Shown: positions 10,551-33,191, numbered from the stretch's first letter. The stretch: DNA of 64,000 bases from Yuukianura sp. NJ FZ-2021 (GCA_046563655.1 CM102287.1:9176001-9240000); one strand, 5' to 3'. The notes: generated from the sequence alone by a model not told the origin. Numbers and translations: made by a program.

Positions 10551-12900
10551 GTGCATTTTCCTAATTTATGAGAATTTTAAAAATTCCTAAAAATTCATTT
10601 TCCAAAACATCATCACACCTTCTAACTTTCCACAGAAGGACTTTTGGAAAAAATTCAGGATAGGCTGAGAAAATCACTAAAGTGTATTTTCCTAATTTAT
10701 GAGAATTTGAAAAATTCCAAAAAAGTCATTTTTCAAAACATCATCACACCTTCTAACTTTCCACAGAAGGACTTTTGGAAAAAATTCAGGATAGGCTGAG
10801 AAAACCACTAGGACTTTTGGAAAAAATTCAGGATAGGCTGAGAAAACCACTAAAGTGTATTTTCCTAATTTATGAGAATTTGAAAAATTCCAAAAAAGTC
10901 ATTTTTCAAAACATCATCACACCTTCTAACTTTCCACAGAAGGACTTTTGGAAAAAATTCAGGATAGGCTGAGAAAACCACTAGGACTTTTGGAAAAAAT
11001 TCAGGATAGGCTGAGAAAACCACTAAAGTGTATTTTCCTAATTTATGAGAATTTGAAAAATTCCAAAAAAGTCATTTTTCAAAACATCATCACACCTTCT
11101 AACTTTCCACAGAAGGACTTTTGGAAAAAATTCAGGATAGGCTGAGAAAATCACTAAAGTGTATTTTCCTAATTTATGAGAATTTGAAAAATTCCAGAAA
11201 AGTCATTTTTCAAAACATCATCACACCTTCTAACTTTTCACAGAAGGACTTTTGGAAAAAATTCAGGATAGGCTGAGAAAACCACTAAAGTGTATTTTCC
11301 TAATTTATGAGAATTTGAAAAATTCCAAAAAAGTCATTTTTCAAAACATCATCACACCTTCTAACTTTCCACAGAAGGACTTTTGGAAAAAATTCAGGAT
11401 AGGCTGAGAAAATCACTAAAGTGTATTTTCCTAATTTATGAGAATTTTAAAAATTCCTAAAAATTCATTTTCCAAAACATCATCACACCTTCTAACTTTC
11501 CACAGAAGGACTTTTGGAAAAAATTCAGGATAGGCTGAGAAAATCACTAAAGTGTATTTTCCTAATTTATGAGAATTTTAAAAATTCCTAAAAATTCATT
11601 TTCCAAAACATCATCACACCTTCTAACTTTCCACAGAAGGACTTTTGGAAAAAATTCACGATAGGCTGAGAAAATCACTAAAGTGTATTTTCCTAATTTA
11701 TGAAAATTTTAAAAATTCCAAAAAAGTCATTTTTCAAAACATCATCACACCTTCTAACTTTCCACAGAAGGACTTTTGGAAAAAATTCACGATAGGCTGA
11801 GAAAATCACTAAAGTGTATTTTCCTAATTTATGAGAATTTGAAAAATTCCAGAAAAGTCATTTTTCAAAACATCATCACACCTTCTAACTTTCCACAGAA
11901 GGACTTTTGGAAAAAATTCAGGATAGGCTGAGAAAATCACTAAAGTGTATTTTCCTAATTTATGAGAATTTGAAAAATTCCAAAAAAGTCATTTTTCAAA
12001 ACATCATCACACCTTCTAACTTTCCACAGAAGGACTTTTGGAAAAAATTCAGGATAGGCTGAGAATACCACTAAAGTGTATTTTCCTAATTTATGAGAAT
12101 TTGAAAAATTCCAAAAAAGTCATTTTTCAAAACATCATCACACCTTCTAACTTTCCACAGAAGGACTTTTGGAAAAAATTCAGGATAGGCTGAGAATACC
12201 ACTAAAGTGTATTTTCCTAATTTATGAGAATTTGAAAAATTCCAAAAAAGTCATTTTTCAAAACATCATCACACCTTCTAACTTTCCACAGAAGGACTTT
12301 TGGAAAAAATTCAGGATAGGCTGAGAAAATCACTAAAGTGTATTTTCCTAATTTATGAGAATTTGAAAAATTCCAGAAAAGTCATTTTTCAAAACATCAT
12401 CACACCTTCTAACTTTTCACAGAAGGACTTTTGGAAAAAATTCAGGATAGGCTGAGAAAACCACTAAAGTGTATTTTCCTAATTTATGAGAATTTGAAAA
12501 ATTCCAAAAAAGTCATTTTTCAAAACATCATCACACCTTCTAACTTTCCACAGAAGGACTTTTGGAAAAAATTCAGGATAGGCTGAGAAAATCACTAAAG
12601 TGTATTTTCCTAATTTATGAGAATTTGAAAAATTCCAAAAAAGTCATTTTTCAAAACATCATCACACCTTCTAACTTTCCACAGAAGGACTTTTGGAAAA
12701 AATTCAGGATAGGCTGAGAAAATCACTAAATTGTATTTTCCTAATTTATGAGAATTTTAAAAATTCCAAAAAAGTCATTTTTCAAAACATCATCACACCT
12801 TCTAACTTTCTACAGAAGGACTTTTGGAAAAAATTCAGGATAGGCTGAGAAAATCACTAAAGTGTATTTTCCTAATTTATGAGAATTTGAAAAATTCAAA
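10551..12900. repeat. Tandem satellite array, 131-bp monomer, 17 full copies plus a partial copy
   Basis: GTGTATTTTCCTAATTTATGAG recurs at 10551, 10682, 10855, 11028, 11159, then every 131 bp to 12862. Two monomers are 173 bp because of an internal 42-bp duplication. Confidence 0.98.
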
Positions 12901-13374
12901 AACATTGGATTTAAACACACAAACACGGAAAAAAATTTCCAAAGTCGAATTTAAAGTTATCAAGCCATGCATACGCGTTTGTTGAAAAACAAACGTATAA
13001 CGGATTTGAAATTTTTGAACAATTTAAGTTAAATTGTTTCTCTTTTGACACATGTGTGACGTTGTATTGTATGTGACTTCATTTCACATGCGTGATTTTG
13101 AGTCACTAAATGACTATTTGTGGTCAAATTGTTAGTAGTGTTGCTGGTTACACAAATGTGAAAAACAGAAATACTTCTTAGTCACCAGAAAACGCAAGGC
13201 GTGCAACAAAAAAAATCCTGCTACATTAGAATTTTAACTTCCTGTTCCACTTTTCCTTATAAATGGAGAACTTTTGGACAAATTAGGTCAAGCAGTTTAG
13301 ATTTTGCACAACTCAGTTGTCCGTTTTTGGAGAAACTTTTTGTAACTTTACCTAGAAGTGATTTTGTGTACAAA

Positions 13375-14398
13375 ATGGAAGGTGTTTACAAACGTCGTTA
13401 CACTCTTCCCTTCATTACCAAAAGCCTCTCTTTCGAAGATGAGGAAATGGAACTACGGAAAAATTTTCCATATCGACACAAAGTCTACGACTATACCATA
13501 CCACCTCAAGATTTGAAAAACGAAAGACCGTTTTTTACCGGACGAAAACCGGTTCCAGAATCCGAAAAACCTAAAAATCTGCCACTTCCGACACCAATCC
13601 ACGTCCGTGAGATTCTAAGTGACGAGGAATTAGAAAATGAGAGTCCGTTCATGCGCGGGAGAGTAAAAGTGCCAAAAGAAATTATGAAAGCACGACGAGA
13701 TGCACAGTGGCGGATGTTCAAAGTTTTGGACAAGCGGGAACGTTCAAACGAGCGACCGTTCATGCATGGACGACTCGAAGTTTCGGAAAATCCGAAACAA
13801 CTTTTCGTTCAAATGGCACCAGTTCCGACGACACCCGAACTTGAAAACGAACGTCCATTCATGCACGGTCGAAATGGACTCAAGAAAGAAATTGTAGAAC
13901 GGAGACAACGGCGCAGACTCGTTCAGCTTGTACGTGACGTCAATGCGTCTAGTCCACCAAAAATTGGATTAGACAAACTTGTTGACCAAAAATCAAAAGT
14001 AAGCCAAATTTTTCCCTTCAACTTTTATAAAATAAAAAAAAAATTGGTTTTAACTCCTAACTTTTTTTTCTGGTAAAAGTTACCAACACAAAAACACACT
14101 AGGCGAATGTGTCCACCGTGTGAAGCTCTCAACAAATTTCGAAAAACAAAAATCGTACCAGGTAAATGTTCATTTTTAAAATTATGTAATAATTATATTA
14201 GAAATGTTATTCCTTATCAATTAAAATTAAGGTTTGCATTTCTAGTATCTATTTTTACATTTAATAGCTGTCAAGTCCGTCCATGGTTTTCTAAGGGGAC
14301 GTACCGATGACTACTCTACTGAAAAATTAATCAAGATACAGCCAAGTGATATAAAAAAAAATCAACTCTTTTTCTCATTTCGTGATGACCGCAATTAG
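13375..14398 (+). CDS. Basic intracellular-looking protein with repeated (E)NERPFxxGR motif, unknown function (3 exons)
   Basis: Long ORF, TATAAAT at about 13257, introns 13999-14079 and 14162-14267 preserve frame, stop TAG 14396-14398. Repeats NERPFFTGR, NESPFMRGR, NERPFMHGR x2 and HGFLRGR. Confidence 0.7.
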
Positions 14399-14585
14399 TC
14401 AGCACTTCCGCTTAACAGTAATTAGTGACTAATTATTTTATGTACGGTAAAGTTAAATAAAAAAATTATGTATAATTCCAATTATCGAGACGGAGTTGTC
14501 ATAGTCACATTTCACGGCAGCATTGGTACAATATTTACATCATAGTTCTTTTAACATTAGTGGCAAACCATAATAATTTGTAGTC

Positions 14586-15741
14586 ATGAACGGAAGGGAT
14601 AACTTTAGCTCTGCGATAGGAGCGAATATGAGTGACGACTACGGAGGTTACACGGAATCCCACGTTGTTACTCTATTCATGCTAACCAAAGCTACTGTCA
14701 TAATTTTGTTCGGTATTTTTGGAATTGTTGGAAATGGATTTAGTATTGCGATTTTTAGAAAACGAAAGCACGACTCTTCAATTGATCTGATTTTGCTCAA
14801 CCTTGCTATTGCTGATTTGGCATTCCTCATCACCATGTCACTGTATCAAGTACTCCAACTCTTCGCAAATTTCCACTCTATTTATGTAACATCTCCGCAT
14901 TCGCCAAATTCATATGGAGTTACTGTCATCATATGTGCAGGTAACCAACATACCATAACTAACCTAGTGCACCCAAACTTATTCAACACTATTTAATATT
15001 ACATATTATAATATATTATATCATATAATAGATTATATTATATAATCTAGTCAGGTTCAACAGAGTACAGTGTTATTTTTTGCAGCTCAAACAGCATCCA
15101 TCTTGTACGTAACTGTGATGAGCGTGGAACGATTTTGTGTCGTGTGCTATCCACTACATTCGCGACGGTTTTGTACGAGAAAATCAGCACGTTGGGCAGT
15201 GTTTGTCATCACTTCGGTATCCATTGGATTCCATTTGTTCCGGGACGTTGTGACCGTGATTTTAATTGACCTAAGTCAAACCGAAGCATATGGTAATGCT
15301 ACAGCATTAGATTTTGCAGAATTCGATGAATCAATGTACGACACTACGGCGTTTTATTCATTTGAAAAATTTTGGGAAGCTACGGAAGTTGTGAAATTCC
15401 TAATCAATATTGGAATTCCGTCAGGCATTATCTTATACTGTAACGCAAAAATTTTGCAGTGTGTAGCTAAAGCTGTAAAATTTCGATCTACTTTTAGTAC
15501 TCAAAAGTTAGAAAATATCCAGTTGACACAAAGTCTACTTGTAGTGGCTTCCGTGTTTTTGATTAGTCACTTTTTCTATGTTGTTGACCGTCTGTACTAC
15601 CTCGTATTCCGTGAAGTGAATGAAAACATTTCAATGTTCTCTGATGTCATGTACACTATAAATTCGGCTGTAAATTTTCCAATTTATGTTCTCACGGGAC
15701 AGAAATTTAGGAACGAATTTTACCAAATCTTTAAATGCTAA
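14586..15741 (+). CDS. Class A peptide GPCR, FMRFamide/sex-peptide-receptor-like (2 exons)
   Basis: TM1 GIVGNG, TM2 NLAIADL, TM3 MSVERFCVVCYPL, TM7 INSAVNFPIY, helix 8 GQKFR. Intron 14941-15085. Confidence 0.9.
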
Positions 15742-16250
15742 ATTTCAAAATTTGAAATGTATCTATTACTAAAAAGAAAGAGAAATAAAATGCAATTGTC
15801 GATTTTGAAAATTTTCACTTCTATCAAACCAATGTGAAAACAGCTTAATTTATTCTACTTTTCCGATTAAACCAAAATTGGCACCCGAAGATAAATTTGG
15901 ATTGGCATACGGTATATGTTCTGATTTGAGTTTTATTAAAACGCTTTAGATGTTTGTCGGTGTTTGTTTTAGCAAGTCTACTGGGCATTAGCATGATACG
16001 ACCAAACCTTAGGTCAATAATTAGTGAAGCTAAAACCACAGAAGAATTAAGACTTCGTTTGTATAGAATTTAGGCGTGTCCCAATTTCGACCAGAGTCCA
16101 AATTGGATTTGTTGTGAAGCCGCTGCCGGCTAACTTCATAAAGAAAATTTACGTTGACGTGTACTTTTACCACTTTTCTGTATAAACAAAACAATTTTTT
16201 TGAATGTGCTAAACTGAAAATTTGAGTCTGTGAGTCAAATTGTTTTGCAA

Positions 16251-18485
16251 ATGGAAAAGTTTTGGAGGTTAATTTGGTCTGCCTGTGTCCTCATTGGGTG
16301 AGTTTTACAACTGGAAATTCTCTAAAAGTTTCAAGTTTTTTCACTTTTTGAGCTATTTGTTTGACCTATGACCTTGACTTTTAAAACATTTTGTAGGGTA
16401 ATTTTTGGTCAATTTGAAGCTACAAATGCAATGGCAGTGCATAAGACGAGACATTTGAAACGCGACGTTAGTCACGGTGGCATTATGGCTGCGACTACTA
16501 CAGCAGCATCTGCGCAGACTAATGATATTTACAAAATGGGACTTCCTCCGGGATACAACATGCATGAGATTCCGAAACACAAATGTAACATTTTGAAATT
16601 TTGAAATGACATTTTTTGAAATTTGAAAAACAATGACTAATCACTAAAATTGTGCAATTTTATTTTGTATTAGCTGGACGAGCAATGGAAATTTTTATTC
16701 AGTGTAATATTCGTAAAGTTTTGGATTTAGATGAAACGGGAGAAGTAATTTTTCAATTCAATTTAAAAACATCTACTAGACGTAGAAAATTTCAAAAAAA
16801 TATTTCAAGGCAATTTTTTTTCCAAAAAATTTGATAGAGCATCAAAATGGATTTGGAGTTTCGTGTGTTCTGGACAGACTATAAAATTCGGGATCACTTT
16901 AATGCTTTAAAAATGGCTATGGGATTTAAAAAAATGTCTTACGATGAACTCACTGCCGAACAACGCAAAAATTTGACCCGAACGCTCAATGATCCTACAA
17001 TGCTCGAGATCATTTGGACTCCGAATTTGTTTTTTGGTACGAAAAAAGTCAAATTCAGAAAAAATTTCCAAATTTCATACATGTTATGTTACCTTGCAGG
17101 AAATTTGATGGAAGTAGATCAACCGGTGGCCATGGCCAAACCGGTAACTTTGAAAGTGATTCCGGACATTGGTGCTTTTGAGTATTTAACTCGCATTAGT
17201 GTCAGGACGGATTGTCCAATGCATTTCCAATATTATCCGGCAGATACACAACAATGTGTGTTCAAGGTCAGGTCATTCTCATATACACTGAATGACCTCA
17301 AATTGAAGTGGTACAAAACAGGAGTGTGGCTACATGAACTCGAAACCTCAAATTTTGACATTCGAGTTGGAGATTTGAAAAATTTTACAAAAATTGAAGA
17401 CGATGAGGGTAACTACTACGTAAGGCTTATTAACATTTTTGAACATTTTTTTAAATTTTGGTTTTAATTTTTGCTAGATGAGCTTTCCGAATCGTTTCAC
17501 GTATTTGAATTTAGAATCAAAGGTCGACGACGCCTCAGTTACCATCTTGTGCAAACGTATCTTCCAAGGTGAATTTCAAAATTTATGAAATTTTGAATTT
17601 TGTAATCACGATTTTTTTTAATTTAGCACTTTCTATATTGTGATTACTTGTCTGTGCTTTCTCCTTCCGACAAGATTTGTTGAAGCCAGAATTGGAATAG
17701 CCATGACCACTCTGCTTACACTTACTTCCATGTTTGCAGCAGTCAGAGAATCTACTCCCTCAGTATCATACGTCAAAGCGTAAAATCAAAATTTTGAAAA
17801 AAATGAAATTTTATTTTCGCGCTTTTCAATTGCTTTTTTTAAACTGTAGCATTGATACATGGATGGCCGGATGTATCATGTTTGTGTTCCTGACTCTTGC
17901 AGAGTTCACATTTATCACTTGGTTTGTCACAACACAACATGACAATATAGCCTAAACTTTTATTAACTTATACATAATATCATATCTCAAATTTCAAATT
18001 TCAAAACAATTTTCGTAACTTGCACAAATTGTGAATGGTTACAGGCTTCGAAGTGTGAAGGAAGACTATGATACAATGCTTGCAAAGAAATCGGTAAAAC
18101 AGGAGTATATTTACTTAATTAGTCTTGGTTTATTAACTTAAATTTTGAGTTTTAGGATGAAGAGGGTTATGGTGAAGATGAAATTCAAACGAAGATTTTA
18201 ACAGGAAAACCGTACAAGTATCCCAACGTTGTTGGTAACCTCAAGATCCGAACTTATGAAACTCTCATGCTCTTCCTTGAAAAGTACAACTTTCCCATCT
18301 TCATTGCAATTCTGTCTGTGTACTCCATCGTGTAAGTTATGAAAGTTTTAAATGAAATTCTATTCAACCTTTACTTAAAAGTTATGTAACTATATAGATA
18401 CTGGATATGGCTTCTGAACAGTGCGAATTACTTTGACTGGGAAATTGACGAGAGGTATAACAATGTCGACGGAGATCCATGGTAA
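16251..18485 (+). CDS. Cys-loop ligand-gated ion channel subunit, GlyR/GluCl/pHCl-like divergent member
   Basis: Signal peptide, IWTPNLFF loop A, Cys-loop CPMHFQYYPADTQQC, RRRLSYHLVQTYLPS pre-TM1, TM2 ARIGIAMTTLLTLTSM, TPSVSYVKAIDTWMAGC, TM4 with FP. Confidence 0.93.
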
Positions 18486-19206
18486 CCCATTAGGTTGACT
18501 ACGATCAATATAGCACCGTAAAGTGCAAGGTGCCTTGACAACCAAAATACAACAAGTTGTATTTGCTACACCATTTGCATTTGGTGTAGCTTGTTTGTTT
18601 ACGAACCTTGGTAAAGTGGATCAAAACTCTAACGTTTGACCATACACTGCACAACATAATAGGTGAAAGGGGTATTTATTTTATATGATGAAAGCTTAAA
18701 AGTAAAATACTAGACTAAGTTATTATGAAATTGCTTAAATAAAATTTTTAACTACACAGTGCAATATCATTTGGTACATTGTTAGTTTTATCGGCAAATA
18801 AAAATAGCGTATTGTCCTAAATTTCTTATTGTTTTAGTAATTCAAATCTCAGTTCTTTCTTGAGACGCTTATAGAGGGAAAAAATTTGAATTAATTATTC
18901 CTCGTCACAGGTCAATGTTTATCTCTTTTTGTTTGTTTTGATCTTTCATTCAATCAAGGAATTGAGGTCAGATCTGTCGTTAATTAAAAATCTGTGGTTT
19001 TTAGTTAGTTAATTGGTTTCCAAAGGTTGACGTAAGTAGTACTTGCAAACATTATTCAGCCGGGCTACGTTTCGGAACAACGGTAAGACTTGTTACAAAC
19101 TACAAAGGACAAACTCCAATTTTAAAACTTAATCTGTTTTGTATGTTTAGGTCTTACGACAAAAGTACAAGAAGCAGGAGGTCAAGAGGTCAACAAATCA
19201 ATACGA

Positions 19207-19941
19207 ATGGAGTTTCTAGTACTTTGGGTGTCCATACTTGCTGCCGTGTCTGCCGAACTGGGACAGAATCTTAACACAGTTGACAATGGTGATCCAATAT
19301 TGCCCAGGATTCCAGCTTATGCGTTGAGTGCAATGAAAAGGTTGATGGCTTTAAAGAAGAAGAGTCAGCATCCGATTTGTGACGAACTAACATGGGGCTC
19401 AGTTCTAACTGATGAAGAGATACTCGACAGAATTGAATCTATGATACCAGAATTTCAAATTAAAGCACTGGAACCAGCCATTCCTGTCGACAAGTTGGAG
19501 ATGTATCGAACCCTACCATTAAACGATTGTAAAGTTCAGACTAATGGACAACTAACGTTTCAAGTGGACGTTCCTGTCAAACCAAGACACATAGCCTACC
19601 AACTATTCAATTTTCCTAAAGGAAGTTTTAGCTTTGAGGCTGACGATGGAATTTGTCATTTTGAATATCCTACTAAAGGAATCGTGGAAACTTCAGCCGG
19701 CGACGCTATTATTCCGCTAAGTGAAAACGAATGGGAGACTTGTATGAGAACGGGCATATGTCAAGTACCGACGGCCCAAGACGTTGACACTGGTGACCTC
19801 GTTTGCCTTCAAGCAGTTTTCAAAGGAAAAACTGGAAGGGAGTTGGCCCCCTTCTGTAAGTTTCACTGTTCGCCTAAACCACATAGAGACAGGCGCCAAG
19901 AAATCTCAGAATCGTTTTTCCTGTCATGGATTCTCAAATAA
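19207..19941 (+). CDS. Intronless secreted Cys-rich protein (244 aa) resembling the central part of baculovirus-F / errantivirus envelope proteins
   Basis: Signal peptide MEFLVLWVSILAAVSA and 8 Cys. Pattern MYRTL...QLTFQVDVPV...YQLFNFP...IIPLSENEWETC...IC...CLQAVF...FC. Candidate 5'UTR intron 19083-19150. Coding status is well supported; homology is by eye only. Confidence 0.6.
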   Translation: MEFLVLWVSILAAVSAELGQNLNTVDNGDPILPRIPAYALSAMKRLMALKKKSQHPICDELTWGSVLTDEEILDRIESMIPEFQIKALEPAIPVDKLEMYRTLPLNDCKVQTNGQLTFQVDVPVKPRHIAYQLFNFPKGSFSFEADDGICHFEYPTKGIVETSAGDAIIPLSENEWETCMRTGICQVPTAQDVDTGDLVCLQAVFKGKTGRELAPFCKFHCSPKPHRDRRQEISESFFLSWILK

Positions 19942-20114
19942 TTCAACGAAACGTAGAGTAGTAAACGGCGATGTCATAACGTATCGCAATCGTTTGTCTT
20001 CGATCGATATCGAGCTTTTTAAATATTTTATATTATAGTAAAAATACTCAGTTACACTGAAACGAATAATCTAAATAATAGTTACATTCATTGACGCTTA
20101 AAGCGTAAAACTAA

Positions 20115-20912
20115 TTACAAGTTGTCAGCAATATCACACATTACGAGGTCTCTATCTCCAGCTGAAGGTTCTGCCTTCCGTTTTCGAGCTTTGCTTTTCT
20201 CCAGTGGTAAGCCCATTTTCTGATTGATGTCATGCTGCGTTGGAAGGTCAGTTAGAGCTGTTTTGATTATGTCTAGACACTTTTCCAAATGTTTTTGAAG
20301 ACGGTCGCAAGTGTCGTATGCTTGTCGTTTCTGAACTTCCATCATGACACGAAGAGTTTCTCGGGCCTAAGATGACAATTTAGGAAATTAAAATTACATT
20401 TGTGTTAATTACTCTTGAGGACTTACCTGGTGTGGTCGAAATTCATTAATTAGGTGATGGATATGAATGAACAGTAGAGAAATGTCTTGAATCTTCTCTT
20501 GCCGCTTGGAGCTATCTGGTGCTAAGATGAGAATTTCCAGAAGGTCAAGATAGTTTACCAAGATTGAGTGGTTGAGTTTCTTTAGCTCTCTGCGATGATC
20601 CAAGTTGTTTGGATAAAGACGTCGGATACCCTACAATACAAGAAATGGTTTAATATTGGTTAAATCATTTTTAAAAAATTGATTGATAAGATATTCACTA
20701 ACCTGGCTCTCAAGTGGACGAATAATTGCATCGTCTGAATGGAACTCCGTGCCAAACATGGAGTAAACATCATGGGAACTTGGAATCGGTGGAGGTTTTG
20801 GTACTTTTCCTCTGCGGACGTTCTCATCAGTGTAGAGATTGATGTAAGCCATGGGTGGTGGTGGCAATGAACTCTGAATTGTCGATTCACGTTCTCTCCC
20901 AGCGTCAGCCAT
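20115..20912 (-). CDS. MED7: Mediator complex subunit 7 (3 exons)
   Basis: [71 protein letters not shown]. Confidence 0.96.
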
Positions 20913-20931
20913 AATTTCAAGTTTCAGCTAT

Positions 20932-21870
20932 TAGACAATTTCGGTTTTCTGAAAAACGGATGGTAGATTGTGATGGTGATGGTAGCTACAATCCTACCAT
21001 CCGTATTGAGAGTATTTTGGGCCTTTTTCTGAAACCCGTCTCTGCTCCGGACGGGACGGTAGGAATCCCTTTGTGTTGGGGGAGAATGAGACTTTCGGTG
21101 CCCGCGAAAACGAAATTGAGTTTTAAATTAACGGTTGAAGTAAACTTTATGGTGTCACTTGTACCCGTGAGTAAAAAAAGGCGTGTCTTCCAGGTGAGGT
21201 TACGTATGTAACCGTCGGTTGTTTTTTCGACGGAAAAGTTGGAGTAAGCTGGAGTTGTTCCTGTTGTACCCACAGTAAGTCAAGTTGTACCACCACTGTT
21301 GTTGTGGTGGTTACAGTAACGTAGCCACCACAACGTAACCACCAGTTACGTTGTGGTGGTTACGTTACGTGCCGTATGACCACTGCGTGGTTACACTGTG
21401 GCTGGTCATATATTTAATGTCAGTGGTTACAACTGACGTCAGTGGTTACAAATGACGTCAGCGGTTACAAATGGCGTCAGTGGTTACAAATGGCGTCAGC
21501 GGTTACAAATGGCGTCAGTGGTTACAAATGACGTCGCGTCAGTGGTTACAAATGGCGTCAGTGGTTACAGATGACGTCAGTGGTTATAAATAACGTCAGT
21601 GGTTACACATGATTGTAACCACCCAATGTATATGCGGGTATATTGATTTTTTAATAAAACGTATATGCGATAATGGTTACAGCGTTTGTTTACAAGAGAA
21701 ACATTTCGGGTTCACCTTAACCGGGATTCGAATTTGGCGCAAAAAATTAACTTAGTACCATCCACCATACATCAAAACCGAAACTGTTTTTGCTACCGTC
21801 TGGTATTGTGGATTGAAACTTGAAGCACAATCCACCATCACCATCACCGTCAGAAAACCGAAATTATCTA
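20932..21870. mobile_element. Non-autonomous DNA transposon (MITE-like), about 940 bp
   Basis: TIRs TAGACAATTTCGGTTTTCTGA (20932-20952) and TCAGAAAACCGAAATTATCTA (21850-21870) match 20/21 as reverse complements. Subterminal GATGGT/ACCATC repeats. Flanks fit a TA or ATT target-site duplication. No transposase. Confidence 0.8.
21419..21610. repeat. 19-bp minisatellite (GTCAGTGGTTACAAATGRC), about 10 copies, inside the MITE
   Basis: Units start at 21419, 21438, 21457, 21476, 21495, 21514, 21538, 21557, 21576 and 21595. Confidence 0.93.
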
Positions 21871-22141
21871 TTGTTTATGGTCAGTTGTCTCCCTCGCCGC
21901 TGTAGTAGTTTCTGGTTCCGCCCCAAATCGTAATCTGGTGTATTTTCGTCTTGTTTGACACGTTCAAGTGTGTAGTTATCACTTAATGCAATTAACATTA
22001 AATACTGTTAAACGTAAGTTAGCCTTGTAAGACCAACGGATTTAACGATTAGCAATTAATCGATGATTTTGATTTTGTTGATTAGCAAATCGCAAATTAC
22101 AAATTGTACTCCAAGAATGGGATGACGTAAGGATTTCGACA

Positions 22142-22353
22142 GTCATTGTAGCTGCAAAGTGTGGACACTACGGCGGCCTTCTTTTCTGGCTAAAATAGGT
22201 GGCTGCACCTTGATGTCAACTTTTGTAGCCACTTTAATGTAACATAACTTAAAGTGGCAACATAAACAGCCGGATAGTGTTGCCACTCAATGTGGTTGCA
22301 AATAACTGGCTACAGTGTTTAATTAAACAGAGGGCTTTAAACCTTACTTCAAC
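22142..22353 (+). repeat. Diverged dispersed repeat, copy 1 (copy 2 at 26540-26709)
   Basis: Collinear shared blocks GTCAT..TGTAGCTG, GGTGGCT, TTTGTAGCC, GTGGCAACATAA, GCCACTCA and AAACCTTACTTCAAC. Confidence 0.7.
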
Positions 22354-23425
22354 TTGAAAAAGTAAATAAAATGAGTCTGACAAGCGGTTACTCACACATT
22401 TTCATTTTTTCATTTTCATTTTCATTTATTCTCCTGTTTCTGGCAGGCTTTTCAGAATAAGTATTAATGATAGTTCTAATAGCTTGTAATTAATATTAGC
22501 AATATATTTAGCGTATATGTATCAGTTGTAATTTAAAGAAAGGTGCGTATATTAATCGTTACTAGGATTATTGTTGGGAAGTGGAGTTTCTAAATGGTAT
22601 TTTTTTTTAAAATGTTGTAAAATTATGTTTTTTTTTCCTTTAAATTTGTGATATATTATGACTTACATATAATTATTTTACTTTAAATCTTTCGTTGCTA
22701 AAATAAGTATTTTTACGTATTGTTAATATGCATATTCAATATTCAATCCTCTTCCTCAACATCATTTCGGCGTTCGAGTTCATTGTGTTGAGCTTTCATA
22801 AAATGGTCCTTAAGCTTCATTTTTATTGCAATTGGATTGGTAAGACGTCGTACATCCTCTTCCGTCTCCATCCCCTCCTCTTTTTTTCCAGATTCAACCG
22901 AGCTGGGCAAAACTCTGGAATAAACAAAAGTAACATGTGGTTTGGAATTTCAGATTCCGAAATTCCGATTAAAAAAACAAAAGTGAAAGGTAATCAAGAC
23001 TCCGATTAAATTTTCAATCTTCATTTTCTCTCGGACTTTCTCTTTCATAATCCAATTTTGATTGATCCAGTCACGCAATTCCAAGACAGAAGACACGCAT
23101 CGGCGGCTTCGACGATCGACGCATCGCCACAAGTAAAAAACCGATTACCCTTAAGTGACTCAGCCTGTTTCGCTGTTTTCATTTCCAGTTTGAAATTTTC
23201 CAGGTTCCTTCCAGGATATTGGCACTCTAACTGTGACCGTCGTCAACTTGTGAAAAGGAAAAACGCTGGAACCGTGGTCAAGAACGTAACGAAAAAGAAC
23301 CATCTCCTGCTTGGCAAGATTTAAAAAAACATAAGTTCTAATATTAATTACGAATGAATTTAAAAAAAAGCAATGTGGATTGTGTTTAATGATAATCTTG
23401 GAAATTCTTTAGACCCGTAACGAAT

Positions 23426-24994
23426 ATGGATGGGGCGGATCCAATCGTGAAGCGTGTTTCTGAAGCTGAAGAAACTACTGGGCTGTTTGCGAAATTAGCA
23501 GTTGGGGATGCTCAAGCAGTACAGTCAATGTTGACCGACGGTACTGCGAGTGTAAACGATGTAGATGAACATGGGATGACACCATTGGAACACGCTGCTT
23601 ATCGTGGTAACAAGGAGATGTGTCAACTGCTCTTGGACTGCGTAAGCTCTTCATTTATGAATCTACTGGTAAACATTCTAAACAACTTTTTTTTCCATTG
23701 CAGGGAGCCTCCATTACTGAAGGAACAAAGAACAACGGCTACACAGCGCTACATTTTGCTGCTCTTTCTGGAAAAGCAGATCTGTGTCGGTTTCTACTTG
23801 AACATGGTGCCAAAGCACATCCAGTCAATTCCGTTGGGAGAACTGCGGCTCAAATGGCTGCTTTTGTCGGTAAGCATGGTTTTATTGATCCGGTCGTACG
23901 CAGAACCCTCAAGCTAAGTTTTTTGAGCATTCAAATGGAGTCTTTGATTTTGATTATTAGGTAATCACAAATGTGCGTGTACCATCAACTCCTTTATTGA
24001 TCAATCGGATGTTGAATACTTGACAATTCCACAGGGATTAGAAACTGTTCCTAAATTGTCTCGCACACTTCTCAATCCTGTTTACAATCTGATTCTGCAG
24101 GTACTAAATGAGAGAGATTGGTCTTTTTGCAGACGTTCACATGCGTAACAAGGTGAAATAATGCATAAATTGTTTCATTTCCTAGATAAATTTCCATCCA
24201 GTGAAGTTGGCTCTGTTTATCGGTCGTGATGAACTTCTGAAGTCAAATCTCCAGGAGATTGCCAAAGCCCTGTCAGTTTTTGTCGAAAGAGAAATGAAAA
24301 AGGTAAGACACAAAAACACAAAGATTATGCAAATGTAATGTTACTAATGTAACTGATCTTTTTCTGATTGCAGGGAGTGGAGCGAAACGAATTGATGGGA
24401 ATGAAAGTTCACCTAATTAGTCACATTCTGCTTCAGTTGGATTTGGTACTGCAAGGTCAAATTGCCAAGGGCAATGAACCATCCGTCGAAGCATTTGTAA
24501 AGAAACTTCTGAAATGTGACACTCCTGGAGGAATATCTGAAAACTTGGATGTTCTTCTTCGTCAAGGGGTCAGGAATTTTCCATTCCCAGAATCTGGGAT
24601 TATGCAACAACTTGTAACGGGGTTGACACAGATCAAGGTCAGTAGATGATTAATCAATTAATTTGAATTGTAATCAAGAGGATGACCTTTGACCTTGTAC
24701 CTTTACTCTTAGCTCTGTGAACATCCTGGAGCATGGGGTATAATTTCTAGTGTTATCAATGGCCAAAAGGGGTTCAAGGACAATGAACCCTGTTCTACAT
24801 GTGGGGAGGAAGACGCAGAGAAAAGATGTGCTCGGTGTCACTATGATGTGTACTGTGACAAGGATTGTCAGAAGCTCCATTGGCCATTCCATAAGAAATA
24901 CTGTCAATTGAAAGCCGATGAGTATGAGAAAAACAGGAAGAAGAATGAAACAGAAGCAGCAGAGGAAGAAGCCTTGTTCAAAGGAAAATCTTAA
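23426..24994 (+). CDS. ANKMY2: Ankyrin repeat and MYND domain-containing protein 2 (DAF-25 orthologue-like)
   Basis: Ankyrin repeats GMTPLEHAAYRG, GYTALHFAALSG and GRTAAQMAAFVG, NFHPVK, and C-terminal MYND finger CSTCGEEDAEKRCARCHYDVYCDKDCQKLHWPFHKKYC. Confidence 0.94.
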
Positions 24995-25368
24995 TCCTAA
25001 GTTTTAATTAGTTTAGCTTCTAGATTTTTACGACTTTACTGCATCCGTGTGTGTCTTTGTTCACTTTTTACTTCAAAGATGCATGACAGACACGGGAACA
25101 GTAATAAACTTGTAAATTCAATTTGAATATATCTCTGGACAAGCAACTTTTGCTGTCAAGCAACCGAGGTTATAAAAGATTTGGACTCACACTGCCACAG
25201 GTTTTAGTCTCCGTTTGTCCTTCCGTGATACTGTTACTACCTCACAAGTGCGTCAAAGTCAAAGGTCAACTGCTTAGAACGGTAAGACATTAGTTTTTGA
25301 CACTTTTTGCCACATCTGTTGCAAACGTTAGCAAAACGTTATCGTTTTTGTCGTTTTTCAGAAACAAC

Positions 25369-26143
25369 ATGGCAGCTTACTTCCCAGGACTCGGAGCCGG
25401 TTTCGGGAAATCGCTTAACATCGACGCAAGTAGCGGAGCGTTCGCTGGTGCCGGAATTCCTATGCCACCTCCAGTCGGTGGGCCTGGTTTAGCTCCGCCT
25501 CCAGTTGGTGGCATGCCACCATGGTTTGGTGGGTTCGGCGGAGTTCCGTACGTTCCAGTAACACCATTGGGAGCCCTTGAAGGATTCAAAGGAGACTTGA
25601 TCGTGCCAATTGTAGCTGTGGGCGTGGCCATCTTCTTGCTGATCATCATCATCATGGCAGTCAAGGCCGCTTTGGCCTGGAAGTTAAGTCTTCTGAGCGA
25701 GCTGGCTTCTTCAAAATCCAATAAGTTCCGAAGAGACACGACATCTACTCCTGGGCCACCGGAAGAAGATCAACTGAATCACTTGGCCAGCATGGTTCTG
25801 TCTGCCATCCAGTCACAGTCATGCGCTCAAAACATGATTTGCCAAATAGGAACGTATGCAAGGACTCAACAAGGACTTCCAAGTTTACTCAGGTTCACAC
25901 TAATAAAACTCCGGTAGAAATTTGCGAAAACGATGGTCGATTCTGATTTTTAAAACTTCGTTTTTTAGGATACTGGAGACGTTGGTGCCAAAATCTGTCC
26001 AGGAACCGATCCAAATCCTTCGATCTTCTGCTGAGGGATCAGTAAACTGTGACCAACAGTACAAGTGCAGTACGGACAACAAACCTGCATCAAAAGCTCC
26101 ACCCAAATCTTCTCAGGAATCCCAAAACACAAATAAGATCTAG
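25369..26143 (+). CDS. Single-pass membrane protein, Gly/Pro-rich N-terminus, DM4/DM12-like Cys-containing C-terminal domain
   Basis: TATAAAAG at 25171, 5'UTR intron 25282-25361, TM LIVPIVAVGVAIFLLIIIIMAV, KFRR, SQSCAQNMICQIG, NCDQQYKC. Intron 25893-25969. Confidence 0.72.
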
Positions 26144-26539
26144 AGGTCACCAAAAGGTCAACACTCCGCAGGGAAATTATTTATTCAGCCGAGATAATTT
26201 TTTAGATATCGCATTTTAGTTCCAATTGTAGTTAAAAACCAAACGCAAATTACCCCGTTCACTTTACAACGCTAAAGTCTAACAAACATACCAAGAAACT
26301 AACGTTAATAAACTAAACTACATGCATAAGTTTTGCTAATTAGTTTTTTCATTAACACTAGTATAATTTATTGTCGAAACGATGCGAGAGATTTTGAGGC
26401 TATGTTTATCGGAGTGAGATGTCTCCAATAATTTCAAATCGAACTACGCGCGGAAATTTCATCACAGTTTTTAGCTGGAAATTTGGCCGCCATAAGGATT
26501 AATGACAGGAATGTTAACAGCAGTGTAACCAGTAGTAGG

Positions 26540-26709
26540 GTCATCTTGTGTAGCTGTAATCGGTGGCTACATCTCTGGCCACATTTGTAGCCGTCCAATC
26601 TTAAAATAACTAAGCTAGAGTGGCAACATAAGTAGCTGCACAGTGCAGCCACTCAGTATCATTGTATCGTGAAAGTGGATGTAATGTTGCAGTAAAACCT
26701 TACTTCAAC
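26540..26709 (+). repeat. Diverged dispersed repeat, copy 2 (copy 1 at 22142-22353)
   Basis: Same ordered blocks as copy 1, ending AAAACCTTACTTCAAC. Confidence 0.7.
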
Positions 26710-26955
26710 CGGACATCTGTATCTTATCTAAAAATTATAAAAATCGTAGTAGTTTTTTAGAATAATTGTTCAATTGATTAATAATTGTCGTAAAGATAAC
26801 GTAAAGGTGTCAAGGTGTGATAGGGTTCACAAAGTGGAGGATTCGTGTTGAATTCAATTAGTAATTGAAGGATTCTTCTGGAACGACGGAATTGAGGGAA
26901 GAAAGTTAGTCGTTCTCGTAGTTCAATTAAATTAGTAATTGAGTAAATTGGAATC

Positions 26956-28024
26956 ATGGATGCCGTAGTGTCATGGGTCGAATCCATGAAGTTGAAGCAA
27001 CTGGTACATCCTTACTACTTGGTCAACATTCTGCTCAGCGTATCCTACTTGCTATGCAAATTTGTCAAACCTGCCTGTGGTCTTGTCTTCGCTGGAGACT
27101 GTGAGCTGGACATGAGGCAAGGGGAGATCCTGTTCTTCCTTCTGGTGGTCGTCATGGTCCGGGCGAGGAAGCACGGGTCAATGACAGTCATTGCATATCT
27201 TAACAATTCCTTCATGTATGCAAAAGTAGCCAATACCATCCTCTGGTTCTCTTCTTGGAAACCTTATGGCTGTGCTTTTGCATTTTTCTTTCTTCGTAAG
27301 TCTTTACTTTTAATTTACTCATCAATGTGTATTGTAGATTAACATTTTCTTTGATTTTTACAGTCCAAGCATTTCTACTTCCTGAACCNNNNNNNNNNNN
27401 NNNNNNNNNNNNNNNNNNNNNNNNNNNNNNNNNNNNNNNNNNNNNNNNNNNNNNNNNNNNNNNNNNNNNNNNNNNNNNNNNNNNNNNNACTGTATTCAGG
27501 CCCTGAGAAGGTCGTGTACTTCCGAGATGAATCGCTGTTCAAAGCCGAGGTGGAGAAGAAAGCTGGAACAGCATCAGCATGGCTGGTTGAATTTTACACA
27601 ACATGGAATCCAGCCTGTGTCAACCTTGCTCCAGTATTCTCCGAGTTGTCATCAAAGTAATGTCGAAGTGTACATCAATTCTTTGACGTCGCAAAATCGT
27701 CATACACTGTTTTTGTTTCGTTTTAGATACGCTTTGCCCAATTTCCAGTTTGGTAAAGTGGATGTCGGTCGTTTTCCAGCTCTGGGACATGCCTATGGTA
27801 TCTCAGATTCAGCCTTTTCCAAGCAACTGCCAACGCTCATCCTATTTAGAAACGGAGTTCCTCAGTTGATTCGACCAACGGCAGATTCCAAAGGAAAACT
27901 TATCAAATTCCACATGAATATGGAAAATATAGTCACAGCCTTTGACCTCAACAACCTCCACAGTGAGCTCAAGGCTGTTGCAGCTACAAGCAAAAAGCCA
28001 ATTCAACATCCCAAGTCAGAGTAG
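26956..28024 (+). CDS. TMX2: Thioredoxin-related transmembrane protein 2
   Basis: LVHPYYLVNILLS, CELDMRQGEILFFL, PEP.YSGPE, WLVEFYTTWNPAC, FGKVDVGRFP, SKQLPTLILF. Interrupted by an assembly gap. Confidence 0.94.
27389..27488. other. Assembly gap (100 N)
   Basis: Run of exactly 100 N inside TMX2 exon 2. Confidence 0.99.
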
Positions 28025-28279: not shown

Positions 28280-31200
28280 CTAATTAACTGGAGGCCAAAT
28301 ACTTTGAACTTCCAAATGGAATGTTGGTGGAAGCCATGTCAAGTATTCTTGCAAAAGCGTTTTAGGTTCCTTTTTCCACACTTCTTCAAAATCGCTTTTG
28401 CGCTGAATCTGTTTTGATGAAATCGCTGTAAGGAGAACTTGAGTTCTTGGTTGAAGGCGGGCCCAGGATTTCGTCATGATCGTTGGACTTGACAGGAGCT
28501 TCGGACTAAACTTTTTCAATTGTTGAAACAGTTGACCTTCCAGAAAAAACTGAGCAAGTAGCTTATACTTTTCAGCAGACGGCGGATACTCGATTGGAGA
28601 CAAAGGAAGTTCCCAACTCTGTTTTCCATAACGTGCTTTGGCAAAACACTTGACCGTGCCAGTTTCAGCGTCGTAGAACGGCGGAGGATCCAGTACTGGT
28701 TTGTCTACTTGACACAAAGAAGAAGCTAACGGTAGAATCCACTGTGGATCGATTCCACTTACTCCGCGCAAGTATATTTTCCCGCCGCTTTCAAATGCTT
28801 CTTGATAAACGATCCATTGCGGAAGGTCACCGCGTAGAACAGAGTCGCTGTGCAGAAACACAGGGTCACTCAACTCACCGCACCTAAAACACAAAAACCG
28901 AAATATTCACAACTTTTTGAAAAAAATTTCATATTTTGAAAAAAAAAACGTACCAGTACGCATGTTTGTACTTCTTGGCCTCTCCAGCAGGAATCTCATT
29001 TTGGTCCATTCTTCGTCCGATTCTATCCGGAAATCCACTGAGTAAGATTTGTCTTAGAATTTTTGCTTGTTCTTCTGTGGGTGGTTTCATCGCGGGATCT
29101 ACAACGGTCTCTTCATGCCCTCTCACCATTAAATTAATTTCTGTCGTTAACTGTTTCCTTAATTTTCGAATTTCCTGCATAGCTTTAAATCGGAGACCGA
29201 ACTTCAAACAACTCTCGGGTGAACCTCCGTCAAATTCAAAGGCACCAACAGCTCGAAGTAAAACCATTGCATCACCTATAATTTTAAGGTTCCAGTGATT
29301 AGCTAATTAGTAATTGAAATTAATTAAAAACTTCACTTTTGGTAACTGACCTAGCAGAAGACTCGATCCAGTTCCAGCCCACTTTCGCCTAATCTGATTC
29401 CAGCGTCCTTTGGCCTGATTGGTTGAAGATTCTTCGCAACTCTCCAACAGAATTTCCTGAAACGATAAGACAAGCAAAATTCCAAATTTTAAAACGTGAG
29501 AAATTTAGTAGGAAATTTAGAGTATAAGACAAGCAAAATTCCAACGTGAGAAATTTAGGTTGAAACTTTGAGCATAGTACAATCGAACTTCCAAATTTTT
29601 GTAATTTTTTCAACTCCTACCTTGATGGAAAGTGCTGCTACAAGAGTGATGACATAATCGAGCACAGAATGTGAAAAACTAATGGCCAGCATCCTTGCAA
29701 ATCTTGGGCTAACTGGAAGATGAGCCATAGTTTTTCCAAGACTTGTGATTACAGTAGCATCTACTTTGTCACGATTGACATCTCGAGGAACTTCCAGTGC
29801 TCCGAGATTGACCAAAAGTGTTTCGGCTGTACGAAGTTGAGCATCTCCTGGATGTGTTGGATAAGGAAATCGACGAACACGATTGATTGACATGGACTTC
29901 ATTAGTAGCACCATGTCTTCAACTGGACGAACTTTGATTTCTGGTTCAGAGAACTCTGGAAATTCTGTATGGAACACAGCAGCTGAAAACAACCTAAAAT
30001 CCAAGAAATGTTTAAAACTTCAGTAATTAAGGACTAATTAATTAACAAATTATTTTACCGATAACAATGTCCTGGGCCTGTTCTCCCGGCTCTTCCAGCT
30101 CTCTGTTCGGCAGAAGCCTTGGATGCCCACGAGACATGAAAAGTCTGGACTCCTGTCAGTTTGTCCCATAGTTTCAGTTTGACTTTTCCCGAATCCACGA
30201 CATACCTGTAGTGAGTGAACCAAGACAAAAAAATGGACTTCGCTTTCGAATACTTTCAGTAATTGCTAAAGTAATTTAAAAGTATTTTGTAACATACCGA
30301 ACTGAAGGAATCGTGAGAGACGTTTCAGCAACGTTTGTCGTCACGACACAAAGTCTGGAGTTTGGAGGAGGCGGAGCAAAAATCTAATTTAAAAAAAAAT
30401 CAAAAATTGAAAAATTTCGAGAGATGAGAAACTGTAGAGCAGCCAGGATCCACAAAACTGCTTTTGCGGCAACAAATACCCAAAAACTGGACACTCAAAA
30501 CTAAATTTTTGTCAATAGATGCTGAAATATCTTTTAAAATGGAAGTGAACTTTGACCTTACTTTTTAAAAGAGAACTTACTTTTTGCTGTTCCTTGACAG
30601 GAAGCATAGAATAAAGAGGTACGACATGCAGCGTTTCCTTTGAACCGTCTTCCTTTTCAGCAGTGTCTTCATGTTCCTCTTCATCTGATTCTTCTGAATC
30701 GTTTTGATTCGCTGCTTTGATTCTGTCAAGGTCAAATTCTTTCAGCGACACGGCAGTAGAAGCTTCTTTTCTCTTGGATTTCGGAATTCTGACGAGTGTT
30801 TTGGAAGTGGCGTTGGTTTGTTTCAATTGATTGCAGAGCTGTTTGACCTCTTCTTGACCCGTTACAAAAATAAGAATTCCACCAGGAGGAAGTTTTCTAT
30901 GAATCTGTAAAGCCTTCTTTTTGGCAGCGTCGAGGTAATTACTTGGTGTTTTCTTGCTAAAGTGAATTTGAACAGGAAACTGTCTCGTCGGAACGTGGAT
31001 TACAGCTGGAATTCGGGGAAATAGAAGTCTGTTTTCAGTGAAATCTTCAATCCGAAGAGTAGCCGACATCACGACGAGTTTCAGTGGATCTTTTCGTTTT
31101 TCGCGAATGAAGACGACGCGAGAGAGGAGACCTGAAAACAAAATTTCAGAATTCGTAAAACTCTTTTCTTTAGGAGGTTTCGTTTTTTCGAAACTTACCA

Positions 31201-32309
31201 ATCAAAATGTCGGTGAACAATGACCGTTCATGAGCTTCGTCGATGCAGATGACACTGTACTTTGATAGAATAAAGTCCTTTTCCATTTCTTTGAGTAAAA
31301 CACCATCAGTCATGAACTTGATTCTTGTTTTCGGAGATGTGTTGCCTTCAAATCGAATTTGGTATGAAACTTCTTGTGGTGATAAATTAAGTTCCTTTGC
31401 AACACGATTCGCCATTGCAATGGCCGCAACTCGTCTCGGTTCAGTGATTCCTGTAAAAAAACAAAAGGAGCACTTACAACTATTATGGAGTTGCTTTGTA
31501 TTAAAAGTGAATTTACCAATTAGTTTCGGTTGATTGGCATAACCCGCTTCGTATAAAAATTGCGGAACTTGCGTAGTTTTACCAGATCCGGTTTCACCGG
31601 CTAAGATTGTTACCAAATTGTCGTTGATCGCTTCAACAATAACTTGTTCTTCAGGGACAATTGGCAATTTAGATCGAATTTGTTCAATCTCTGGCAGTCT
31701 GTTGACTTTGACATGACAGTGGGGACGAGGTGTGCATTTCGGCGCATTACGGTCAATGAGTTCCGTGTCGTCGTCGTCATTGAAAGTGGCCTTCACTTTG
31801 GTTTTTTCATGCTCTGATACTTCATTTTCGGCTTCGGCCATCTCTTGTTCATCTTCTGGCTCATCGCTTCCACTTGCATCCATTTCTTTATCGGAGTCGG
31901 AGCTGACAGAAGGTTCGTCATCTTCTATAGTGGGTTCCTCTTGGCCAGCCGATGTTTCATCTAGTTGCTTAGTATTCATAGAGTTCCGCTTTTTAGTTTT
32001 TGTAGCTTCGGCAAACATCTTCTTGAGTCCATCGTTCTGAACTTTGACCAGCGGCGTTAAACTTTCGTAAACGTTTTGTGGAAGTTGATGCTTCTGAAGT
32101 TCAAGAAGAAGCTCAGCTCGATTCTGCTTCTTTCCTCGTTTTGCAACAATCTGCTCCAGTTTCTTTCTCTGCTTCTTGGACAAGATTGGGGTTTTTCGTT
32201 TGGTAGTCGTGATTTTTGGTGCCTTGACCCGCTTGGATGGCAAAACTAACGCATTGGCAGCATCATAAGAACCGTATTCCACGTCGAAATGTTTCGCATC
32301 AACTTCCAT
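28280..32309 (-). CDS. DHX37: DEAH-box RNA helicase DHX37 / kurz / Dhr1
   Basis: [75 protein letters not shown]-terminal [10 protein letters not shown] and C-terminal [10 protein letters not shown] typical of DHX37. Start codon approximate. Confidence 0.95.
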
Positions 32310-33191
32310 TATGTTTGCAGTCGAGCTAAACAACAAAACAAAACATTCCATCAGCACAGCATTGCAGAATTTAGAAAGAAAAACGGATCAAAACGTTTTA
32401 CCTTCTTTAGTTTTCAATTGAATCAATCCACTGTCAAATTCATAAGCCGGAATAAGGTAGGTGGTCCGTCTGAATGGTACACAATATGCCGATAAGCCGA
32501 TTATTAAAAAAACGATTGAGGACTTAACCAACCGTGATATTGATATTAATTAATGTTGATTTTTGGAATTTTCTAAACTGAAAATGGAAAAGCAAAAACA
32601 CATGGAATTTTGCAAAGAATATGAGTTTCGCGCCACAAAAAAAATATTTGACAGAACTTCAAACTGGGGCGTAGTGAGACCATGAACGGACGGGCTCAAA
32701 AATTAATCCGTACGTTATTAATTACATAATATTCACTAAAAATTTTAATTGAATAATTAAGCTAAAGTAATTAGTCTAACTTTTTGCGTCATTTTACACT
32801 TTCATTTCGTTTTTAAAAGAGCAGAAGAAATATCTCGAAAAATCAACAAAGCTAATAAAATAAGTGTGTGTGCCCAGCTCAGGAGGCGGTAAAAAATAAC
32901 TGTCCGGATTTTTAGAGCGACCACACAAATTTTTCCGTTAATTTTTAATTTCTAAAAAAAAATAATAATAAAGGAGGTTAATTTATTATTAATTATTCGT
33001 GGCGAATTGTGAACTGTGAATTTAATTCAAATCGTCTAATCGTCAAGTCTCCGTCACCGCCACCTTTTCTGACCTTAACGCTTAACACTTGGAGGAGCAG
33101 GTAAACGATTTTGATTAAATTTTTTTTTAAAAATGCGATGAAATTCTATTATATTCGATCAGCTGATCGTTACTGACTTTTCAGATTTGAC

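Follow-up and report, generated by a model that had tools for sequence, protein, structure and literature searches.

Capture of envelope (env) genes by their hosts is well documented in mammals. In invertebrates it is rare, the known cases being Iris and a few genes of mosquitoes, and there the protein has stayed near full length and membrane-anchored. A separate set of mammalian factors, suppressyn, Refrex-1 and those of the Fv-4 type, derives from the receptor-binding surface subunit (SU) of gamma-type retroviral env. Here, we describe a short gene in a 64,000-nt stretch of Yuukianura sp. NJ FZ-2021 (GCA_046563655.1, CM102287.1:9176001-9240000; "the window" denotes this whole stretch as analyzed) that probably arose from the middle of an F-type env protein and is predicted to encode a secreted product. 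In the sections of Malik and Henikoff (2005, PMC1262188) drawn on here, Iris (CG4715) of Drosophila comes from the same type of env, keeps its signal peptide, six conserved cysteines and the anchor, has lost the furin site and the fusion peptide, and is under positive selection; the domesticated env genes of mosquitoes are described there as retaining both the furin site and the fusion peptide. F-type env is reported to be widespread in metazoan errantiviruses and to consist of a three-domain head on a stalk (Chary and Hayashi 2026, PMC13524379), and the word stem "domesticat" does not occur in that article's text. Solo chuvirus-like glycoproteins of mosquitoes have been proposed as receptor blockers (Dezordi et al. 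2020, PMC7642597, in the portions consulted). We found no description of a head-only, anchor-less F-type env gene in the open-access literature and bioRxiv.

We conclude, with a probability of roughly 0.8, that positions 19207-19941 represent a domesticated env fragment forming the single-exon coding region of a host gene, and sequence comparison indicates that this gene is kept by purifying selection. The conclusion follows from the grouping of its relatives in one clade, saturated synonymous divergence together with low nonsynonymous divergence, close-range variation that spares the open reading frame (ORF), neighbors that are host genes, and the lack of long terminal repeats (LTRs), gag and pol. 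As far as the cited sections describe Iris, the two genes are alike in their origin from a Baculo_F/errantivirus-type env, their intronless coding region, their conserved env cysteines and their signal peptide, and both have lost the furin site and the fusion peptide. They differ in that Iris is near full-length with a C-terminal transmembrane domain, whereas the gene described here holds about 30% of env, from its middle, and has no anchor; Iris is under positive selection, whereas selection here is purifying, and the arthropod lineages are different. Domestication of env is itself known, and what is unusual in this case is that only an internal sub-domain has been kept, as a predicted secreted protein, together with the age and conservation of the gene.

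The relationship to F-type env was established through intermediate sequences. A short family of six members emerged, consisting of the window protein, the ORF of locus L001 (242 aa, 67% identity over residues 56-244), P0002 with its cluster-mate P0037, P0003, P0004 (the ORF of locus L002) and the fragment P0005. P0002 and P0003 (237 aa each, 57-58% identity) were the two relatives returned by a word-indexed search, and phmmer against 1.84 billion representatives returned 34 proteins at E ≤1e-3. The latter contained three short matches (P0003; P0004, with 236 aa and 46% identity; P0005, with 148 aa), the 265-aa env fragment P0007 (E 1.9e-11) and 29 further env-like proteins (E 1.1e-8 to 8.5e-4), 23 of which are 417-842 aa long and were matched only in their middle. 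Baculo_F was the sole recurring Pfam family among the relatives, found in 5 of the 33 proteins scanned and, in three of them, above the 24.1-bit cut-off (40.4, 32.8 and 28.2 bits); a second Pfam scan, of alignment rows, found it in 5 of 39. When the short-family profile was aligned by hhalign with the five Baculo_F-positive proteins, the probability was 99.05% (E 2e-18, 158 columns), with residues 64-225 paired with residues 223-382 of P0021 (623 aa). The Protein Data Bank (PDB) searched by sequence held nothing relevant for the short-family profile (best E 0.31, a urease) or for two env profiles, and a scan of IMG/VR with a sister-clade env profile gave seven pattern matches, none of them a relative.

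The alignment of 39 sequences has five invariant columns (C108, P123, C150, C185 and C200), and C179, C217 and C221 are each present in at least 90% of the rows. Given these columns, seven of the eight cysteines of the protein (residues 58, 108, 150, 179, 185, 200, 217 and 221) are conserved env cysteines; the eighth, C58, does not vary within the short family and is aligned, in the sister clade, with an env cysteine that is conserved there. In the tree, the five complete short members group in a single clade (support 1.0), itself nested among env proteins; the tree was built with FastTree (LG+gamma) from 38 of the 39 rows, P0005 being dropped at 51% coverage, and was midpoint-rooted with no outgroup. 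The closest long relative is P0008, which, like P0019, is annotated from the springtail Orchesella dallaii, the only named species among the env relatives; a cluster-mate of P0008 carries the name "Glycoprotein." The env proteins of the sister clade have the full class I layout, with a signal peptide, an R-x-K-R site with a hydrophobic peptide after it, a long helical stretch, the Cys-rich middle, further ectodomain, a C-terminal anchor and a tail. The first-pass annotation had recognized the link to Baculo_F/errantivirus env by eye, and it was borne out by phmmer, by the Baculo_F matches of the intermediates, by hhalign and by the fold searches described below; the motif order that it had picked out, running from MY.TL to VF...C, equals the real conserved pattern of the env alignment.

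Two observations on the relatives stand apart from this argument. The cytoplasmic tails of P0011, P0016, P0022, P0038 and P0174 share a terminal proline-rich R-P-L-P-x-P-P-like motif, which might be a late-domain or SH3-binding signal. In addition, positions 19540-19659 (residues 112-151, containing GSFSFEADDG) resemble the repeated core of a cuticle protein (Chitin_bind_4). We rejected as a repeat-multiplied chance match the 1918-aa cuticle protein P0006, which phmmer reported at E 3e-19 and in which 17 stretches, each of about 23-28 bits, match residues 112-151. That such a stretch can produce a spurious E value of this size is a warning for the automated annotation of this env-derived short family.

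The fold searches are in line with the sequence result, at weak scores. An AlphaFold2 model of residues 58-244 reached a predicted local distance difference test score (pLDDT) of 88.6 and a predicted template modeling score (pTM) of 0.70, and the full-length model a pLDDT of 81. Searched against BFVD, the domain-only model best matched chu-like virus glycoproteins (E 1.1e-5 to 2e-4, query template modeling score [TMq] 0.44-0.59), followed by torovirus S and baculovirus F (E 0.017-0.08, TMq 0.48-0.49), and the full-length model returned the same families. Paramyxovirus or pneumovirus F accounted for nine of the ten best PDB matches by Foldseek and, in a Foldseek-independent scan of 48,161 PDB chains with the domain model, for 13 of the best 15. 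The best chain in that scan was the prefusion F protein of respiratory syncytial virus (RSV) (Z 4.0, 143 aligned residues, root mean square deviation 4.8), in which residues 242-398 were matched to model residues 1-165; the full-length model gave similar results. The best matches were nearly all class I fusion proteins, at weak scores (BFVD E 1e-5 and TMq ≤0.59; PDB Z ≤4.0). A Z below 8 can reflect merely a common arrangement and, given these low values, we count the fold evidence only as agreement with the sequence result. We take the matched stretch to be the end of domain III plus domain I of paramyxovirus F, with the ORF ending about where domain II begins.

The retained piece spans approximately positions 245-430 of the Baculo_F model, which has 609 positions, and runs co-linear with residues 242-398 of RSV F. 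Homology to env begins at or slightly before C58, with some tblastn matches starting at residues 37-39, and a helix at residues 37-51 may be left over from the final part of the env heptad-repeat helix. The match begins only past the heptad-repeat/helical region and does not reach the rear ectodomain; the strand of env located after C-x-F-x-C is aligned with the last 13 residues, and the frame ends five residues later. Compared with env, the protein has no F2 part, furin site, fusion peptide, heptad-repeat stalk, rear ectodomain, transmembrane anchor or tail, in agreement with the first-pass annotation, which had described a domain without fusion peptide and anchor. Since all parts needed for fusion are gone, the protein cannot fuse membranes. 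Errantivirus and baculovirus F proteins share with it a homologous Cys-rich middle in which the conserved Cys and Pro columns come in the same order and, as far as the weak fold scores indicate, a predicted fold that forms part of the F head; the protein described here differs from them in lacking the furin site and fusion peptide, the stalk helices, the rear ectodomain and the anchor with its tail, in having no N-glycosylation sequon (NxS/T) anywhere in its 244 residues, and in being encoded by a single copy in the window, among host genes.

The coding region was confirmed as one open, intronless frame of 244 codons with eight cysteines, as originally proposed. Its Kyte-Doolittle mean is 1.71 at residue 1 (19-residue windows), the five best windows start at residues 1-5, and no strongly hydrophobic 19-mer lies outside residues 1-23 of the protein. 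Hydrophobic windows confined to the N terminus indicate a signal-peptide-like start and no membrane anchor, which upholds the earlier prediction of both; the signal peptide is a prediction from hydropathy and the -3/-1 rule. Basic runs occur at residues 44, 50 and 229, the last being the RR within RDRR (residues 227-230). The earlier proposal of a furin-like RDRR near the end holds in part: the motif is present, 14 residues before the C terminus, but the consensus R-x-[KR]-R is kept in only one of the five full-length members, the window protein itself. All five nevertheless carry two adjacent basic residues 13-14 residues before the C terminus (RR in two, RK in one, KK in two), and the env relatives have no basic pair at the equivalent spot. 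Upstream of the coding region, the GT and AG borders of the 68-bp candidate intron in the 5' untranslated region (UTR), pointed out in the first-pass annotation, are present in the window, with the donor ACG|GTAAGA (GT at 19083-19084) and the acceptor TGTTTAG|G (AG at 19149-19150). The coordinates of all features are collected in Table 1.

Table 1. Features of the env-derived gene, in coordinates of the 64,000-nt window
Feature	Position	Strand	Remarks
Complete coding sequence of the env-derived protein, predicted secreted	19207..19941	+	244 aa plus stop, single unbroken frame; orthologues known
Predicted signal peptide, residues 1-16	19207..19254	+	Hydropathy maximum at residues 1-19; cleavage after VSA predicted by the -3/-1 rule
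Fast-evolving N-terminal linker, residues 17-57	19255..19377	+	High proportion of nonsynonymous differences; pLDDT 50-70; some env tblastn matches from 19315-19321
Env-derived Cys-rich core, residues 58-226	19378..19884	+	Homologous to the middle of F-type env ectodomains (hhalign, Cys/Pro columns, model pLDDT 88.6)
RDRR, residues 227-230	19885..19896	+	Basic pair RR/RK/KK kept across the short family; furin consensus not conserved
C-terminal 14-mer, highly conserved, ending in SWILK	19897..19938	+	Aligns to the env strand after C-x-F-x-C; ORF stops where env goes on
Candidate 5' UTR intron, 68 bp, GT..AG	19083..19150	+	Predicted from the nucleotide sequence only

The short family is conserved as a unit. 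A hydrophobic start is present in all six members and the SWILK ending in all five complete ones, and long stretches are invariant in the family, far more conserved than env itself. Among the three members for which DNA was at hand, the proportion of synonymous differences (pS) is 0.75-0.86, which is saturated, and that of nonsynonymous differences (pN) is 0.24-0.43; in residues 17-57 pN is 0.54-0.64, and in the remainder 0.19-0.39. A ratio of nonsynonymous to synonymous substitution rates (dN/dS) is not computable because dS is saturated. Variation at close range shows a similar picture. A contig of run X1 over 18821-20380 (1560 nt) carries 11 base differences and 1 indel relative to the window, none of these 12 in the 735-nt ORF, for which the chance is about 5e-4 by our own arithmetic if differences are evenly spread. 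In run X3, from a second organism, the five ORF differences among those listed are all at third positions and synonymous; 32 further differences exist beyond those listed, at least one more of them in the ORF. An in-frame stop seven codons 5' of the ATG fixes the start codon in L001. This locus also has a candidate 5' UTR intron, with a donor at about 4095 and an acceptor at about 4198; the acceptor is 58 nt ahead of the ATG, compared to 57 nt in the window, and is followed by TCTTAC in both; in L002 an acceptor-like site lies 1 nt before the ATG. As is expected of a domesticated gene, orthologues are found in several divergent genomes, outside retroelements, as an open frame under selection. 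The claim of domestication made in the first-pass annotation is supported by orthologues of the same architecture elsewhere, their single clade, saturated dS with low pN, and close-range variation that spares the ORF or is synonymous.

The ORF lies among host genes, between the last exon of a multi-exon Cys-loop receptor gene (exons 16838-18335, plus strand) and the 3' end of the convergent multi-exon gene MED7 (20115-20912, minus strand; Pfam Med7, 33.5 bits). Other host genes in the window encode a G protein-coupled receptor, an ankyrin protein, DHX37, Nup35 and zinc-finger proteins. L001 is flanked by genes for a C2H2 zinc-finger protein and an ODAD1-like protein, so that ORF is also among host genes. 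No reverse transcriptase, integrase, protease or gag family was matched by any of 27 stop-to-stop ORFs of at least 120 aa across the window, and a scan of 12000-27000 showed no LTR-like direct repeats on the two sides of the ORF. When the window was searched by tblastn with 28 relatives longer than 400 aa, only 19315-19935 matched at E ≤1e-9, with three other matches at E 0.28-0.92, and no upstream env parts were present in the ORF or its flanking DNA. The absence of LTR, gag and pol sequences nearby, noted at the outset, is thus agreed on by the ORF family scan, the repeat scan and the tblastn of relatives.

Several other features of the window were observed along the way. At 18462-18625, about 600 bp 5' of the gene, the contig depth of run X1 rises from about 27 to 200-310 and many X1 contigs stop with loose ends; one X1 contig has 98 bases (18526-18623) swapped for 33 other letters. 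This segment resembles a short repeated or mobile element that is polymorphic for an insertion/deletion. Between the 5' end of MED7 and the ankyrin-repeat gene, an intergenic tandem array at 21380-21631 holds about a dozen 19-bp units, each with the palindrome TGACGTCA, which we take to be a CRE/ATF-like site. A second tandem repeat, with a period of 131 bp and copies 98-99% identical, occupies 12000-12954 and may continue upstream of 12000, the scan having covered 12000-27000. DHX37 (minus strand) and Nup35 (plus strand) form a divergent pair at 28280-34484. Their closest database relatives, P0043 and P0163, are both from JGI with a longest contig of 6535 bp, and the adjacency may be conserved in a related organism. 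Among named species, searches with pieces of DHX37 and Nup35 matched arthropods at a distance (35-44% identity), next to metagenome proteins, as would be the case for an arthropod host, probably a hexapod.

A number of results weigh against the domesticated-env reading. Pfam hmmscan of the 244-aa protein returned no family even at E ≤10, and neither the protein, which does not reach the gathering threshold of Baculo_F (PF12259), nor the other short-family rows match this family, the five matching rows being env-like; without a direct Pfam match, the protein is linked to Baculo_F transitively. In addition, the Baculo_F-positive proteins entered into hhalign had been picked among matches of the same query. 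On the structural side, Foldseek against the PDB found nothing at E ≤1e-3, and none of the 48,161 PDB chains reached Z ≥5 (best 4.0). Synteny beside MED7, a check proposed in the first-pass annotation, is absent in L001, the one orthologous contig with flanks. The env relatives sit on short unannotated contigs, and the donor may have been an errantivirus, another retroelement or an exogenous virus. With respect to function, an arms-race restriction factor would hardly be expected to be so strongly conserved and to show no signs of diversifying change. A further point comes from a language-model protein atlas, in which BRICHOS scored 0.80-0.83 and OAF 0.77-0.78 (whole protein and residues 58-244), as would be the case if the protein were a BRICHOS- or OAF-like secreted host protein unrelated to env. 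Such atlas scores are below the trust level and are reached by a third of shuffled proteins, however, and no Pfam match to BRICHOS (PF04089) or OAF was found at E ≤10, nor any BRICHOS chain among the 50 best rows of either PDB-wide scan. Given the shuffled-range scores, the lack of a Pfam match and the statistically strong env homology, we rejected the leads to BRICHOS and OAF and regard this origin as barely conceivable.

The env homology itself could be read in other ways. If the ORF were the remnant of a dead errantivirus or other endogenous viral element (EVE), with its frame open by chance, an intronless coding part and env origin would be expected. This is highly improbable, given that the 236- to 244-aa build, the signal peptide, the position of the stop and SWILK have been kept despite saturated synonymous sites, that the five complete members form one clade, that close-range differences spare the ORF or are synonymous, and that no other env, gag or pol remnants lie nearby. 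We also considered the reverse direction, in which viruses or retroelements took up a secreted domain of the host as the middle of F-type env, to which the midpoint-only rooting of the tree and the long branch of the short family lend something. The short family is nested among env proteins, however, and is seen in a handful of sequences, whereas F-type env is reported across Metazoa and several virus families (PMC13524379, in the sections drawn on here). The piece moreover appears to be an internal fragment of a larger single fold common to paramyxovirus F, and the ORF ends within the env strand after C-x-F-x-C, all of which makes capture in this direction very unlikely. Finally, the protein could be a precursor in which a proprotein convertase cuts at the basic pair, leaving the C-terminal 13-14-mer as an active product or regulated tail. 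That every one of the five full-length members has the pair, that the protein's most conserved stretch comes after it, and that env relatives lack it at that spot are consistent with processing, but the furin consensus occurs in one of five, the homologue of the tail is a beta-strand of env rather than any known peptide, conservation is also strong in the large Cys-rich domain, and the C-terminal motif had no match in the open-access and bioRxiv literature. We therefore hold the precursor explanation to be improbable, and we prefer that of a domesticated env fragment.

Under the domesticated-fragment reading, an F-type env gene (Baculo_F/errantivirus/paramyxovirus-F-like, class I) would have been captured and truncated, such that the stretch from the first conserved cysteine after the long heptad-repeat helix through the strand past C-x-F-x-C was retained, with a signal peptide and a variable linker placed ahead of it. 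The protein would then enter the secretory pathway, fold as a disulfide-bonded soluble domain, and presumably act by binding something outside the cell or within the secretory pathway. By analogy to suppressyn and Refrex-1, we tentatively propose that it could serve as a decoy on the cell-surface partner of F-type env, a possibility in line with the receptor blocking suggested in the first-pass annotation. An equally tentative proposal is that it is a host ligand or binding protein without any remaining viral link, a reading favored by the very strong sequence conservation, and we consider these two about equally likely. Poisoning of env trimers in the secretory pathway appears unlikely.

Comparison with other soluble or solo env-derived factors places the gene further. 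Its layout, a signal peptide followed by truncated env without an anchor, is that of a soluble env factor. In this it resembles suppressyn, Refrex-1 and the Fv-4-type factors, with which it would share a host-made product and a proposed occupation of an extracellular partner. It differs in that those factors are SU-derived, whereas the predicted product described here corresponds to the F1-equivalent head of a paramyxovirus-F-like protein. The chuvirus-like EVEs are similar in being glycoprotein genes outside retroelements and proposed antiviral receptor blockers; they differ in being described as glycoprotein-B-like and mostly recent fragments, and conservation deep in the host lineage is not argued in the sections of that work drawn on here (PMC7642597). 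It is possible, if doubtful, that the gene is an ancient invertebrate counterpart of suppressyn/Refrex-1, a long-kept secreted fragment of a paramyxovirus-F-like env head that occupies the cell-surface partner of F-type env.

In summary, our study suggests that one sub-domain of a fusion machine can find new use as a soluble protein and be maintained by strong purifying selection in genomes that have diverged deeply. If the suppressyn-like proposal is true, the gene would represent both a host defense and a ready-made soluble bait for the receptor of F-type env. To our knowledge, errantivirus env and baculovirus F have no established cellular partners, and a head fragment that is soluble and conserved could be of use in identifying them.

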